Shown here one piece after another: positions 29,488-64,000 of a DNA stretch of 64,000 nucleotides. The position numbers were made by a program, and so were the translations under genes. Position 1 is the first letter of the stretch; every line of letters begins with the position of its first letter. Source of the DNA: Escherichia phage vB_EcoM-VpaE1; sequence record KM657822, one strand, 5' to 3'. The notes under the pieces are model-generated. The model was not told the DNA's origin, did not search any database, and saw nothing but the letters and a program-made list of their open reading frames with translations.

Positions 29488-29859
29488 ATGAAGTGGCTAG
29501 AGGAAGCTTTTAAAAACAATATTGGTGCAATTGTTGTTGGTATTTTTAGTGTTATTGGGATGTATACCACCATGCAAGTTTCAAGTGGTAAGCAAGAAGT
29601 GTCTATCACAACAAAGTTACAGCAGCTAGATAATTATTCCAAAAGTAATTATTCAGCTATTCGTGATTTACAGTCTGACATGAGACTGCTTCAGTTAGGG
29701 ATGGAGAACCAGAAAGTCCAGTTAGAGAATGTTAAGGGAGAGAACGCAAAACTTACTAAGACTCTTGATAAATTCTCTGATAGCGTGAACAATCTGGCTC
29801 AGTCAGTATCAGCCCTCCAAGCTATTACTGAAAAGAACACAAAGAATACTGAAAAGTAA
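29488..29859 (+). CDS. N-terminal TM plus coiled-coil protein (spanin- or holin-like candidate)
   Basis: 123 aa; TM helix IGAIVVGIFSVIGMY then heptad-rich region. Confidence 0.35.
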   Translation: MKWLEEAFKNNIGAIVVGIFSVIGMYTTMQVSSGKQEVSITTKLQQLDNYSKSNYSAIRDLQSDMRLLQLGMENQKVQLENVKGENAKLTKTLDKFSDSVNNLAQSVSALQAITEKNTKNTEK

Positions 29860-32490: not shown

Positions 32491-32820
32491 TTAATCTGCC
32501 AACCTTAAATTGAAATTAACACCAAATTTTTCACATACTCCCAACATATACTCAAGGGAGACGTTACCAGTGAGATGGATTATGTTGGATACACGAGCCT
32601 GAGAGATACCACAAATTTTAGCAACTTGCTCTTGAGAAAGACCTCTGGATTTAATCTCTCTCTTAAAACGATGTGCAACGAAGTCTCTCATTTCGTCTAC
32701 ATCCATTGGACAAATATAACTCTCCATTTCAGCCTCTCTATCAGCCTCCCAATCATCTTGTGGGGCATAAGGGTCAAAAACCTCATTCATCTTTCTTCTT
32801 CCGTTTGCGTGAAGTGTCAA
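32491..32820 (-). CDS. helix-turn-helix DNA-binding protein (XRE-like)
   Basis: LSQEQVAKICGISQARVSNI helix-turn-helix segment; true start may be the internal Met. Confidence 0.45.
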   Translation of the reverse strand: MTLHANGRRKMNEVFDPYAPQDDWEADREAEMESYICPMDVDEMRDFVAHRFKREIKSRGLSQEQVAKICGISQARVSNIIHLTGNVSLEYMLGVCEKFGVNFNLRLAD

Positions 32821-37108: not shown

Positions 37109-37665
37109 TTAGTGTACTTCAAGCCAATTCTTACCAACTTTACCAGTACCAGTTACAAGCGTTTCCTCCTTAAGCCCTAAGTTTCTTGATGCCTGACCAT
37201 ACATCCAGTCAATCACTGCTTTAACATCCTGTGTCATCTCTTCTGGGCACTCCCAACTATTCTCATCGTGGTATGCCAAAAGCAATCTAGCACCAATAGC
37301 TGGTTTTCGACCATTCAGCTTTGTAAGACCCTCTTCACAAGTTCTTCTACAAGCGAGGTTGATGGCTTCATTCTGAACCTGACTTTCCGAACCCATGAGC
37401 AGATAATTCAATAGCTTGTGTGGAGATTTACACCACAACCATGCACCAGCAACCTTTACAAAACCACCTTTAGAGATTGCAGCAGTCTTACCAAATACCT
37501 CTTCAAGAGCCTTCTTAGTGGCTTTGAAGTCTGCTTCTAAATTATCTATCAACTTCTTAATTTTAGGGAGGCGTACAAAGTATGTTTGCTTAGTTAAAGC
37601 ACCCTCCTCAGTTGTAGATGCTTTAATCGTCTTAGCAAATTTCTCATCGCCAGCCCCGAACAATA
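37109..37665 (-). CDS. DNA polymerase (family A) exon 2
   Basis: Begins with second half of motif B (LFGAGDEKFAK) and carries motif C (LLAYHDE); no ATG start. Confidence 0.7.
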
Positions 37666-37876
37666 CATCTGGTCAATACACTCGCAAGGTGTACCAGTTC
37701 TCTTATGAACTTCTCCGCATTTCTACGGAGTGTCGGACTATATCACGTAGCAGTGGTGCTACCGTTGCACTTGGGGATGGTCATTAGCTTACCACCCTAC
37801 TCTACTCAGTTCATACGTTAAGTATGCTTTTCGATAGTCTCTGAACGTTTCTCTGTTAGGAATCTCTATAGTTATG

Positions 37877-38113
37877 TTATTTGCTTAGGTAGTCAATTGC
37901 TCTTTGCATATTATCAACGCTATCTGCAAGCAACCCCAAAGCTCTGTTGCAATTGTGGCATAACATACCTCTTACCTTTCCGGTTTTGTGGTCATGGTCA
38001 ACAACAAGCTTAGCCTTGTGTCGTGAACCATTCATGATAAAACCTTCACCGCCACAAATTTGACATTTGTAATCACAGTTGCGGAGTAGAGTTTCGACCT
38101 CTTCTCTTTCCAA
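37877..38113 (-). CDS. intron-encoded HNH endonuclease domain
   Basis: CDYKCQICGG ... DHDHKTGKVRGMLCHNCNRALG HNH motif. Confidence 0.7.
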   Translation of the reverse strand: MEREEVETLLRNCDYKCQICGGEGFIMNGSRHKAKLVVDHDHKTGKVRGMLCHNCNRALGLLADSVDNMQRAIDYLSK

Positions 38114-38337
38114 GCCATATTATGTCCTTTCTCACCGCAATGTGATGAACAATAAACTTGCCTTGCTGTTCTCGGCATGAACACCTCCTCACAGCTAGGA
38201 CATTTCTTAGTAAGAACCCTGTGTTCTGCCCTTCTGTCAAATTTTAACACACAACTTCTGCACCGTTTTTGATTGTATTGGTACGGTTTAAACTCCGTGC
38301 CACACTCAGTGCATAATCTCTCTTCGTAACCTGCCAT
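38032..38337 (-). CDS. intron ORF N-terminal Zn-finger segment (possibly same gene as HNH via frameshift)
   Basis: ATG 38337 preceded by AAGGAGAGAG; Cys-rich (CTECG, CRSC, CPSC, CSSHC); overlaps HNH ORF in another frame. Confidence 0.4.
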   Translation of the reverse strand: MAGYEERLCTECGTEFKPYQYNQKRCRSCVLKFDRRAEHRVLTKKCPSCEEVFMPRTARQVYCSSHCGEKGHNMAWKEKRSKLYSATVITNVKFVAVKVLS

Positions 38338-38445
38338 TATCTCTCTCCTTTGTTTTAGGAGTCCTAACAGAGACTTCGCTGCTGATTACCATATCTTTAC
38401 AGACTTAGGCTTCCAGCAATTCACAACGTTTTACATGCGCCACTG

Positions 38446-40588
38446 ACGCATAAATGCCATTTTTGGCTTTCTTACGACCTTTGCTAATTTCTTGAAGAAG
38501 ATTTGTATCCTGAGTGGCTCGACAGGTCAAGATGTCTTCCTCTTTATTAAGGCTGAAGTAGATGCTATTTAAAGTATGCGCATCAGTTCCTGAGTACACT
38601 ACGTACAAGTCATTTTCCGAATCATAATGCAAATACTTGTCAATCTCTGGGTTTAGATACTGGTCAAAATGTTTGCAATAGTACCTGCCATCCTCTTGTT
38701 TGACGAACTCAACCTCTTCTTTACCCTCTGTTACTGCTTTAGTGAACTCTTTATCACCCATAAAGTTACACAGCAGTACAAGTTGCGCGCTATTCATATC
38801 TGCTGAAACAATATTAGTTCCTTCCTCACAAGTCCAAACCTCCCTCATAGGTGCTCCATAGACAGCAGCACCAGACGGTACGTTTACAATACCATATTGT
38901 GTCATACGTCCAGTTGAAGTACCAAACACCATTGCACCAGCACTAAGGCGACCATCAGGACGAATCTGGTTCAACCAACCTTTTTCATCATCCTTTGAGT
39001 TCTCAATAGTTCTGCGTCGGTGCATCAAAGTATAGTATTTCGCAATCTTCTGTCCAAGCTCACCTTCAATCGTATCATAGGATGATTCGGTAAGTTTTGG
39101 TGAAGTACGGATTAAGCAAGGTTCAAGCAAATCTGTGTACTTCTTAACAGACCAGTTATGCTCAATGTACTGTACACCTTCGTGCTCAACATAACTCAAA
39201 CCACACCGCTCGACCATTTCCTGCCACTTAGGATGCTTTGTAATCATCTTTTTATTGTCTTTGAAACGACAAACTTTGACAGGGCGACCGTCTGAGTCTT
39301 TCTTGTAGTTCCAGTCATCTGGAATCCAACCAACTGATTTCAAGTAGTCTTTAACAACTGCTACCTGAGTCATACGAGAAACTTCAAACTCAATTGGTGT
39401 ATATGGTGCATCAATCAAACCTGTGTAGCGACTTGACTCAAGTCCAAAGTGGTTAACAACGTGGCTGTTATAGTACTTCACAGTTTTGACTGTTTTTACT
39501 GGCTTCCAGTCTTTGCATTTCTTACCAATCTTTGCGTTCAACTCATTGCAAATTGCACGAGCATCCTTCATTGCTACAAAGCCTTCCTTGTACTCTTCAC
39601 CAGTTACAGAGTTGGTTGGTGTATAGCAATTTCTCTTTTCAATGTTAAAAATCTTTGTAGTTGGCTTACCAAATGGCTTGATTTCATATGTCTGCATCTC
39701 ACCGTTACGTACCTGCTGACGATACTTTGTCTTAGGATACTTGGTAATTCTTTTCAGTCCATCTGCATGACCAAATGTTTCAACATACTCATTCCAAGCT
39801 TTTGCAAACTCTTCTCCAGTGACTTTACCTTTGGTCTTAATAGTTGGAGGTAGATGTGGTTCAACCTCTGAAGCAAGCTCATTAGTCAACTTGTCAAGTT
39901 CCTTTACATGGAACTCCATAAGCTCTTTATCAGCTTTCCAACCATTGATAGCTTGTTGGCTCATCCAGAAAGATGTCTCTTTAGCTCGCATGTAAGTTTC
40001 ATAAGTGTCTATACCACACTTCTTAAGCTTGAGATATTCATTATCAAGTGCCCGTTTAGTTTTGGCGTTGATACGGATATCTTCTACAACACGAGTGAAG
40101 ATTTCTGCATTCCACACACCCCAATGTTCAATCTCTGGTTTACGAACACCAACACGAGCACCCCATGCAGCCAAACCATGAGCACCTTTATAGCCCTTTG
40201 GAGTTGGTCTATCCATCCACTGAACACGAGACTGGATAAGAGAATCCTGAAAGAAATTACTCCACGGTTTACACTTTGGATTATCAAAGTTCCATAAATC
40301 AGGTGCAATGTGATTGAAAACCCACCAGTCATAACCGAGACCATTATGGATGCAAAGACGTTTTGCCTTTAACGCAAACTCAATGCCTTCACGTAAGCCA
40401 CCCTTAATGTACTTGGTATACTTGTGACCGAGGATAGGCTCATCTGTAAAGACCCATACAGGCGGCTCTTCATCGTCAGATTTATAGTCTGCGAAAGCCA
40501 TTACGTGCACTTTAGTGAACTCAAGGAGTAAACCATCAGTTTCTGTATCACCAACTAAATGTAAGTTTTTAAAATCTACGTTTTCCAT
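38446..40588 (-). CDS. DNA polymerase (family A) exon 1: 3'-5' exonuclease and polymerase motif A
   Basis: Exo I VGDTETDGL; motif A VSADMNSAQLVLLCNFMG; first half of motif B GRKKAKNGIY; start ATG 40588 behind GAGGGAG. Confidence 0.8.
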
Positions 40589-40845
40589 TTTTACTCCCTC
40601 TAAAATCATTAACCTCATACATTACTGCAAAAAATTATAAAAAGCAAGTTGACAATGCACTTGACAAGGTGTTAATCTTTGCGAAGTGGGTTTTTACTTA
40701 AAAGGTTACTTAACAGTTTAACTATACAGATACTTTAAAACTCTTAAAAGATTATTTAATAGCTTTTAAAAAGCTTTAAAGTATAACGTATAGAATACGT
40801 TAAGATAAAAGATTAAAACTTAATAGTTACTTAAAAGAGGCTTAC

Positions 40846-41268
40846 ATGCAGAAAATGTTTGTTCACCCAGACATAGCTGACTTTGTTAGAGCTTTGCACA
40901 AGTTGGAAGAACTTGACATTGCTGCTCAACGGGAATATGCTCACCATCACAGGAGAATGGTTGATATACAACATGAAATAGAGTTGTCTGAAAACTATGA
41001 AGATGACTTAAAATGCTCTGTATTTGAGCATATGAAAGATGTTGCTACAGCGAGACGTAAAGCTAAAGACACAGTTGCTTTACTAGATTCTCTTAAAAAG
41101 AGGTTGCAAAGTGGTACAGACCTGTGTAATCTAGCGTCACTGATTAACGATGTTGAAACTTCTTGGGATAGGCACTACTATCCACGTTCTGAAAAGACAC
41201 TTGACTTTTCTTCATCCGAAAACTTAAAATGTTCTAGAAAGAAACTTAACCAACTGAGAGAGAAATAA
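40846..41268 (+). CDS. hypothetical early protein
   Basis: 140 aa ORF after AT-rich divergent intergenic region. Confidence 0.4.
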   Translation: MQKMFVHPDIADFVRALHKLEELDIAAQREYAHHHRRMVDIQHEIELSENYEDDLKCSVFEHMKDVATARRKAKDTVALLDSLKKRLQSGTDLCNLASLINDVETSWDRHYYPRSEKTLDFSSSENLKCSRKKLNQLREK

Positions 41269-56963: not shown

Positions 56964-56982
56964 CCTTATGTAAAACTTGACA

Positions 56983-57022
56983 AGGTGATGTGGGTCTTGA
57001 TAGGCTTACATCACCTTTTTTA
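56983..57022 (+). terminator. rho-independent terminator
   Basis: 9 bp stem AGGTGATGT/ACATCACCT followed by TTTTTT. Confidence 0.5.
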
Positions 57023-63439: not shown

Positions 63440-63462
63440 AGGCTCCTACGGGAGCCTTTTTA
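63440..63462 (+). terminator. rho-independent terminator
   Basis: GAGGCTCC-tacg-GGAGCCT followed by TTTTT; same stem as the 29866 terminator. Confidence 0.55.
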
Positions 63463-63478
63463 ATTTCTGGAGAAAGAT

Positions 63479-63814
63479 ATGAAAATCAAAGAGATGAACA
63501 TTAACGTTGTCCTAGAAGAACGTTGGGAAAACATTAAGAAACCTGAAGATGGTAAAAAGTTCCTTAACAAAATTTTAGTAGCAGCTAAAGAAGAACTGAC
63601 TGGCAAGATTGCAGCAGCAATCACAATAAAAGTCTGTGTAAAAGGTCTTCCACAACATCACCAATTTGCACTTGACGAGTTTAAAGAAAGCTTCTACAAT
63701 CCAAACAAACAGATACTTGAAAGTAACTTTGCAGTGTCTACAAGTATCGTCCATGACAGAAGCTTTATCCTTTACAAAAACATGAGAGGTGAGTCATGCA
63801 AGCATATTGGATAG
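63479..63814 (+). CDS. hypothetical protein
   Basis: 111 aa ORF. Confidence 0.4.
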   Translation: MKIKEMNINVVLEERWENIKKPEDGKKFLNKILVAAKEELTGKIAAAITIKVCVKGLPQHHQFALDEFKESFYNPNKQILESNFAVSTSIVHDRSFILYKNMRGESCKHIG

Positions 63815-63972: not shown

Positions 63973-64000
63973 TTTAACAGTAAACTAAGAGGAAAGTATT

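Follow-up and report, generated by a model that had tools for sequence, protein, structure and literature searches.

A candidate early control region with predicted divergent promoters and a repeated 8-mer leader in Escherichia phage vB_EcoM-VpaE1

The typing of Salmonella is the classic use of phage Felix O1, and related phages are in wide use for biocontrol. Here we describe a candidate early control region in Escherichia phage vB_EcoM-VpaE1, namely the intergenic gap at positions 40589-40845 (257 nt) of a 64,000-nt stretch of the sequence record KM657822, which was analysed as a whole and is called the window throughout. The gap separates a family A DNA polymerase gene on the minus strand from a plus-strand operon that consists, in this order, of orf140, orf263, a deoxynucleoside monophosphate kinase gene, orf66 and a primase/helicase gene with Toprim and DnaB domains (Pfam). 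The 5 kb surrounding the gap match 260 phage records, with a top identity of 95%, and 321 nt around it are 100% identical to positions 63443-63763 of Felix O1 (AF320576). By this sequence identity the gap is the gene 96/97 intergenic region of Felix O1, and the phage is a Felix O1-like myovirus of the genus Felixounavirus, subfamily Ounavirinae. Divergent promoters were assumed in the 96/97 gap by the authors of the Felix O1 genome paper, but no sigma70-like sequence was found there, and the phage encodes no RNA polymerase of its own (PMC3185647).

The GC content is 26% in the gap, 21% at 40691-40845 and about 39% in the window. A preliminary description of this DNA had reported an AT-rich divergent region of about 225 nt; the AT-richness holds, and the length does not, the gap measuring 257 nt from the polymerase start codon at 40588, while the ATG at 40618 is merely the first in-frame ATG of the polymerase open frame. 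The features of the gap are collected in Table 1.

Table 1. Features located in and beside the polymerase-orf140 gap (positions in the window)
Feature	Position	Strand	Details and basis
DNA polymerase start and ribosome-binding site	40586-40600	-	ATG 40588-40586, GAGGGAG 40600-40594; sequence, annotated start in relatives
Candidate leftward sigma70 promoter	40619-40647	-	-35 TTGCTT 40647-40642, N17, -10 TAATGT 40624-40619
A/T tract AAAAAATTATAAAAA	40629-40643	+	About -56 to -42, the position of an UP element; overlaps the leftward spacer; putative role
Predicted rightward early sigma70 promoter	40649-40678	+	-35 TTGACA 40649-40654, N18 spacer, TG 40670-40671, -10 TAATCT 40673-40678
Initial transcribed stretch GTGGGTTTTT (predicted)	40686-40695	+	Near-invariant in the alignment
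Unwinding-prone stretch, least stable 150 bp of the window	40690-40839		Nearest-neighbour free energy
Six CTTWAHAG 8-mers	40697-40837	+	Starts 40697, 40709, 40743, 40774, 40819, 40830
Relaxed 8-mer copies		+	CTATACAG at 40722, TTTAATAG at 40755
Short hairpin/palindrome TAACGTAT-AGA-ATACGTTA	40784-40802	+	Covariation, RNAalifold
orf140 ribosome-binding site and start	40835-40848	+	AAGAGG 40835-40840, ATG 40846; sequence, open reading frames (ORFs), Pfam, annotation of relatives

Predicted divergent promoters and rightward leader

The predicted rightward promoter obtained a score of 10.25 in a position weight matrix (PWM) scan and ranked about 52nd among the 639,650 candidate sites of the window; its start likely lies at about 40685, where the sequence has a purine. 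Conservation was assessed in a footprint alignment of 25 distinct sequences from three genera, to which the column counts below refer, and in a promoter comparison covering six Ounavirinae lineages. All columns of the core at 40642-40654 are invariant (100%), as are 84% of those at 40661-40679, and the TTGACA-N17/18-TAnnnT geometry is kept in the Hafnia phages (polymerase 60% identical), in Erwinia Kolesnikvirus, in Yersinia phage P778 and in all paralogs of the promoter.

The tandem TTGACA boxes reported in the preliminary description are present at 40649-40654 and 40661-40666, 12 nt from start to start. The second of them (box 2), contained in CTTGACAAGG (40660-40669), sits in the spacer of the rightward promoter. 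By itself, TTGACA occurs in the window about as often as chance predicts (70 copies, with 65 expected), and the tandem pattern TTGACA-N2-8-CTTGACAAGG was found once with 0 expected. No -10-like hexamer follows box 2 at 15-19 bp, here or in any paralog, which rules it out as a second -35 element and with it a tandem promoter; box 2 is strongly conserved though it has no -10 of its own.

On the opposite strand, transcription of the polymerase operon is predicted to start at about 40613. The -35 hexamer of this candidate promoter is invariant, and the T, A, G and T of TAnnGT are among the few invariant bases of a variable stretch: 27% of the columns are invariant at 40605-40641 on the polymerase side, and 79% at 40586-40604. 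A TAnnnT hexamer (TAGGGT, TAAGGT, TACTAT or TATGAT) ends 29-31 nt upstream of the polymerase ATG in every lineage. The -35 hexamers of the two promoters are 1 bp apart and the predicted starts about 72 bp apart. A bidirectional promoter had been proposed for this gap, and the proposal is supported by the position-conserved sigma70-type sequence in each direction and by published reverse transcription PCR (RT-PCR) on both flanking units, in which Felix O1 ORFs 96 and 101 were transcribed at 5 min after infection or earlier (PMC3185647).

Several other promoter-like sequences were recorded. The minus-strand TATAAT at 40639-40634 was rejected as a conserved polymerase -10, being without a -35 and lost in the Susp and Moogle clades. 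In Erwinia Kolesnikvirus (L028/L034:2468-2944), the promoter module is separated from the polymerase start by an inserted gene for an HNH homing endonuclease, and a leftward promoter-like site, TTGTAT-18-TGnTATGAT, now lies upstream of the HNH gene. The strong promoter-like sequence within orf140 at 40913-40941 (TTGACA-17-TATGCT, PWM score 12.6) agrees with box 1 over 13 nt of surrounding sequence (AAsTTGACAwTGC); other clades have synonymous changes there, and the site was rejected as a conserved element. A single-box relative of the promoter, CTTGACAAGGTG-N13-(TGa)TAGGCTTA (56976-57011, PWM score 11.5), is located upstream of a series of small ORFs. In several of the top-ranking sigma70-like promoters (1024, 2430, 35356 minus strand) an A-rich AAAAGTTG/AAAAAGTTC tract, similar to the A/T tract of the rightward promoter, stands directly 5' of TTGACA; this tract is probably an UP element of the phage's early promoters.

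The predicted rightward leader is about 160 nt long, has 21% GC, and is AU-rich and almost unstructured. Its six 8-mers of the form CTTWAHAG, the last of which abuts the ribosome-binding site of orf140, compare with 0.16 expected in the 155-nt leader sequence; none of 5000 dinucleotide shuffles of the leader reached six, and no other 160-nt stretch of the window has three or more. The repeated motif CTTAAAAG, already pointed out in the preliminary description, is found at 40697, 40743 and 40830, and it occurs 13 times in the window against 4.85 expected, a number that no shuffle reached. Across genera the copies vary at positions 4 and 6 only, C1, T2, T3, A5, A7 and G8 being fixed, with variants by copy such as CTTAAAAG/CTTAATAG, CTTAACAG/CTTTACAG/CTTTATAG and CTTAAAAG/CTTAATAG/CTTAACAG; 74% of the columns at 40697-40783 are invariant. 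In eight modules the first 8-mer stands 44-57 nt past the -35, at about +8 to +21 of the predicted transcript, the window copy at about +12. In the leaders of the Hafnia and Yersinia phages and in the third Sf13 copy, the first 8-mer is preceded by GGGGTTTT, GGTTTTAA and GGGGGTTTAT, which are similar to the initial transcribed stretch GTGGGTTTTT.

The form of the motif offers hints at either of two levels of recognition. The 8-mer is near-palindromic, CTTTAAAG being a perfect palindrome, which suggests recognition on DNA, and the non-palindromic 8-mers are nearly all sense-oriented, which suggests a directional or RNA-level role. Adjacent copies are often 11-13 nt apart; taken together, all 8-mer spacings are modestly coherent near 11.5 nt (R = 0.59, P about 0.013), which is a hint only, the modules not being independent. 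Curvature by phased A-tracts was rejected, AAA having no power at 10-11 nt. A genome-wide signal function of the 8-mer, in promoters or transcripts, was likewise rejected: outside the gap it has 25 copies in sense and 35 in antisense orientation, and they form no cluster.

The palindrome noted earlier is present at 40784-40802, and its arms are 8 bp, one longer than described. By rough estimate it is only mildly unlikely that 257 AT-rich bases contain a perfect palindrome of 8 bp, and the support for this one comes from covariation. Seven of the eight pairs hold in every one of the 25 sequences, covariation is seen at two pairs (AU/UA 13:12 and CG/UA 19:6), and the hairpin columns are 94.5% paired compared with at most 53% in register-shift controls. 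RNAalifold recovered the hairpin independently from 18 leaders, with a consensus of only -10 kcal/mol over 180 nt. No hairpin was evident by eye in the Hafnia, Erwinia and Yersinia leaders. A long imperfect inverted repeat at 40730-40784, favoured in the fold of the single sequence (z = -1.96), was rejected as a hairpin or cruciform, as variable columns break its pairs (11/25, 11/25, 7/25 and 7/25); it is probably a by-product of the near-palindromic 8-mers.

Further copies of the module

The definition of CTTWAHAG was made after looking at the region, and its recurrence in other lineages and loci is for that reason the stronger support. A pattern scan placed a second tandem-box module about 1.1 kb before the start of the window, at the other divergent junction, between Felix O1 genes 40 and 41. 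It reads TTGACAaagtaCTTGACAAGGTG-TAGGCT, followed by ACTTAAAAGGTT, CTAAAAAG, a 7-bp hairpin (AGATATC...GATATCT), CTTAAAAG and CTTATAAGAGGC-ATG, with its boxes 12 nt apart, and it was seen in the sequences L093 (5179-5427), L066, L068, L086, L095 and L132 and in Mooglevirus Sf13 (NC_042017.1, 18377-18766). It would drive a DUF5681-type ORF and the gene of a DUF2828 'RNA-binding protein', together with the tRNA cluster, which in the window comprises 25 plus-strand tRNA genes at 1080-5917.

The complete genome of Sf13 has three exact tandem-box promoters, at 65320, 18525 and 29775. The first is the homolog of the window gap and the second is the gene 40/41 junction. The third (NC_042017.1 about 29700-29790, minus strand; L159) lies between two same-strand genes, with an 8-mer doublet in its leader, and closely parallels the window promoter (TTGACAATGCCCCTTGACAAGTGTAACTTTG...GGGGGTTTATCTAAAAGGG...CTTAATAGattCTTTATAG); its counterpart in the phage studied here is expected past position 64000. 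Because this third paralog is not divergent, the array is assigned to the rightward promoter, and the 8-mers were rejected as an upstream activator of the polymerase promoter in any general sense.

An independent test was provided by the gene 40/41 junction in lineages left out of the motif definition, with the spacing predicted beforehand; the Hafnia and Yersinia phages conformed to it. In Hafnia phages the tandem boxes are 11 nt apart, with TACTCT and CTTAAAAG at +47; in Yersinia phage P778 the junction reads TTGACA-N17-(TGt)TAAAGT with ggttttaaCTTAACAG at +45; and in Erwinia phages a CTTAAAAGcCTTTAAAG doublet is kept in a rearranged gap. By sequence comparison, promoter and leader form a family, with at least three copies in Sf13, one of them at a non-divergent site. 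A scan of viral contigs with the tandem-box core gave mostly chance hits. In one of them, an unrelated A-rich IMG/VR contig (L052:1787-1830, L130), the same tandem-box string with a good -10 (TTGACAAAGCACTTGACAAGGTGTATGAT) lies inside an ORF; this match is probably due to chance, the contigs having been selected by the pattern itself.

Neighbouring genes and other observations

Proteins that might act at these sites were sought among the neighbours. The orf140 family is limited to the subfamily Ounavirinae; neither orf140 nor orf263 has a Pfam or PDB match, and PHROGs places orf140 in a family of unknown function and the acidic orf263 product in a family labelled minor tail protein. The structural model of orf140 is a helical hairpin (predicted local distance difference test score, pLDDT, 73) whose best PDB match (E = 0.07) is a generic coiled coil. 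A Cro/cI-type helix-turn-helix (HTH) protein of 99 aa is encoded at 32494-32790 on the minus strand (HTH_3, E = 2.6e-09), in the polymerase-side early operon, and it is a candidate DNA-binding regulator of the early promoters.

The polymerase gene itself (37109-40588, minus strand) comes in two parts, the first of 727 aa (38405-40588) and the second, C-terminal, of 184 aa (37109-37663), with an HNH/endonuclease VII-like ORF at about 38032-38337 between the two. A sub-threshold group I intron match at 38328-38418 (E = 0.0017, 24 bits against a gathering threshold of 50) falls exactly at the end of the first part, and the Sf13 polymerase gene is intact (2700 nt). The insertion is probably an intron-borne homing endonuclease.

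The sequence GATC is absent from the window (0 sites in 1-64000, with 186 +/- 12 expected from dinucleotide-preserving shuffles). The Dam/MboI-type site is avoided completely, which goes unmentioned in the Felix O1 genome paper (PMC3185647). In Sf13, a 1.6-kb unannotated non-coding region (NC_042017.1 26630-28235; L159) occupies the convergent junction that corresponds to Felix O1 genes 23/24. It holds the least stable 100 bp of that genome and dense short repeats about 10-12 nt apart, with CTTGTTAG/CTTGTTAA many times and also CTTAAAAG, CTTTATAG, CTATATAG and CTTATAAG, with the general shape CT-N4-AG, and including five CTTWAHAG within 160 nt. Its possible roles are those of an origin, a packaging site or a source of non-coding RNA.

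Interpretation and rival explanations

The reading that we favour, with moderate confidence, is that early transcription of the replication module is controlled from the gap, by two divergent sigma70 promoters and a cis-regulatory 8-mer leader. Unmodified host sigma70 RNA polymerase would start in both directions from the back-to-back promoters, the weak leftward one serving the DNA polymerase operon and the stronger rightward one the operon from orf140 to the primase/helicase gene. The rightward transcript would open with the leader of six 8-mers and one small hairpin. The 8-mers, box 2 and the hairpin are on this reading putative cis-regulatory sites for a phage or host factor, which would bind the DNA just downstream of the start, or the nascent RNA, and would determine how strongly, or when, this class of promoter is expressed early, in whichever direction it acts.

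Known phage systems provide counterparts for parts of this arrangement. Back-to-back divergent sigma70 regions include lambda PR/PRM with its operators and the A2b/A2c-A3 region of phi29 with its p4 sites. By analogy with these, the gap would have two outward host-polymerase promoters within about 75 bp, adjoining conserved short repeats and early genes; unlike them, its 8-mers stand downstream of the rightward start and are not operators between the promoters, and the phage is virulent. The rightward promoter resembles the strong early promoters of virulent coliphages (T4, T5 and A1-A3 of T7), which have a consensus -35 and an A/T UP element, in its perfect TTGACA, its upstream A/T tract and its presumed use by unmodified host polymerase as soon as infection begins, and differs from them in the second conserved TTGACA in the spacer, the minimal TAnnnT -10 and the long leader of repeated motifs.

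Several points weigh against the favoured reading. Both -10 hexamers match TATAAT poorly; the PWM score of the leftward promoter is low, outside the listed hits; and the perfect minus-strand TATAAT could be the true leftward -10 in Felixounavirus. The searched literature contains no mapped transcription start for this phage group. No binding factor was identified, orf140 having only generic coiled-coil matches. The covariation of the palindrome fits a symmetric protein-binding site equally well, and the 8-mer consensus, as said, was chosen with the region in view. The conservation of the gap is, moreover, not out of the ordinary. Its identity is 98-100% within Felixounavirus. For the Susp and Moogle clades the figure is 80-85%, close to that of the polymerase coding sequence (83-85%) and far higher than those of orf140 (67-77%) and orf263 (51-56%). 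A whole-genome control against Sf13 moderates this picture, with identities of 83% for the gap, 80% on average for coding DNA and 84-88% for other short gaps, and a claim that the gap is more conserved than genes was accordingly downgraded to conserved and unexceptional.

The last result also fits a gap that contains promoters only, the leader being an unstructured AU-rich 5' untranslated region that aids ribosome loading and the 8-mers by-products of local duplication and A/T composition that have no dedicated binding factor. The very weak consensus fold of the leader and the long inverted repeat without covariation agree with such an explanation, as does the longest direct repeat of the gap (23 nt, two copies, 83% identity), which suggests past duplication. 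We nevertheless consider it unlikely: the 8-mer count is far above that expected from composition, the copies vary across genera at just two positions, the 8-mer recurs at the same promoter distance in non-homologous paralog leaders and in distant lineages, and nearly three quarters of the columns of the array are invariant in three genera.

Equally unlikely, in our estimate, is a transcription-primed origin, in which the rightward RNA would form an R-loop in the leader, the T7-like polymerase would extend it and the primase/helicase would load on the displaced strand. The T7 primary origin consists of promoters 1.1A/1.1B followed by an AT-rich stretch, and T4 oriF and oriG of a middle promoter and an unwinding element. 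As in these origins, the rightward promoter points into DNA that melts more easily than any other in the region. The DNA-unwinding prediction that the preliminary description had suggested returned the rightward leader as the least stable duplex of the window: 40690-40839 has a mean free energy of -1.075 compared with a window mean of -1.285 (standard deviation, sd, 0.043), about 4.9 sd above the mean, and it ranks first at 100, 150 and 200 bp; the homologous stretch is third in the complete Sf13 genome, where the two junction leaders take the second and third places for instability. The site lies between the genes of a T7-like replisome, with a family A polymerase and a gp4-like primase/helicase and no initiator gene nearby. 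No initiator (Rep, O or DnaA-like) was recognisable among the neighbouring proteins by Pfam, PDB, PHROGs or the orf140 model, and this absence fits a transcription-dependent mechanism. Origins at both divergent junctions would make replication co-directional with all transcription (layout from PMC3185647).

Other observations speak against an origin. The cumulative GC-skew minimum falls at the gap, which would favour one, but it is uninformative because it coincides with the switch of the coding strand. Unlike the T7 primary origin with its tandem promoters, the gap has just one TTGACA box usable as a -35, and unlike the T7 and T4 origins the module has at least three copies in Sf13, one of them non-divergent; an unwinding element that depends on composition alone would not be expected to show high base-by-base conservation and a specific 8-mer, as the leader does. 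The stretch 40560-40880 contains no GATC and, even with one mismatch allowed for either, no DnaA box or IHF site, and the gap has no iterons in the sense of three or more direct repeats of about 17-22 bp, the recurring unit being the 8-mer. The 1.6-kb region of Sf13, which has the single least stable stretch of that genome and is its most repeat-rich non-coding DNA, looks more iteron-like. Replication-origin or start-site mapping for this phage group was not found in the searched literature. The preliminary description had named an origin as a second possibility, and we find nothing positive for it beyond base composition and location; an origin call from AT-richness and GC skew alone would be premature.

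A bolder extension of the favoured reading is that an undescribed phage factor loads at the tandem-box promoter, the 8-mers and the hairpin, at no fewer than three promoter-proximal sites per genome, and either causes antitermination or turns the transcript into a replication primer. This proposal is speculative, and we hold it to be slightly less probable than the two explanations just discussed. If it were true, the factor would make host polymerase processive through the terminators of early units of 30-45 kb, in the manner of nut, put and Q sites, or, in the alternative form, the transcript would become the primer of replication at the most easily melted DNA of the genome.

Improbable, and more so than the foregoing, is the specific case of a processive antitermination leader, in which the 8-mers and the hairpin would recruit a factor to RNA polymerase for read-through of the many terminators in these units, after the manner of lambda nut (boxA and boxB), HK022 put or the Q-binding element. 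It is favoured in part because the rightward units of Felix O1 contain internal terminators, with a read-through that the authors called unexplained (PMC3185647), and also by the position of the module at the head of both long rightward units. Like lambda nut, the modules are paralogous leaders past early promoters in which a short linear motif and a small hairpin occur together; the conserved spacer element recalls a Q-binding element, and one copy, CTCTTA in the window or CTCTTTA in Moogle, is like a boxA core. The likeness does not go far. The boxA consensus CGCTCTT(T)A is absent, CTCTTA standing in one copy only, and it is not kept across copies, lineages or genera; the hairpin is an AU-rich 8-bp stem with a 3-nt loop, AGA or AAC, unlike the GNRA-like pentaloop of lambda boxB. 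The units also hold strong internal promoters, so that read-through is not needed, no N-like or Q-like protein was identified, and the Hafnia, Erwinia and Yersinia leaders again count against it for want of a hairpin visible by eye.

A hidden small gene or a known class of non-coding RNA is very improbable: Hafnia phage records do annotate an ORF of 54-68 aa within their longer gap, but the predicted leader (about 40685-40845) has no ATG on the plus strand, the gap is reached by no ORFs of 40 aa or more except two (40515-40640 plus, 40831-40974 minus) that mostly overlap the flanking genes, the substitutions have no codon-like pattern by eye, and Rfam gave no family match in the gap, its sole hit (snoR20a, E = 0.49) lying inside orf140.

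The tandem-box promoter-leader family and its 8-mer are undescribed in the searched literature, and they still belong to a familiar category, that of phage early control regions. Both early promoters of the region now have testable coordinates. In the genera checked, each genome has three or more transcription units marked by the promoter-leader family, and the promoter could serve as a compact, strong early expression element for the engineering of these phages.

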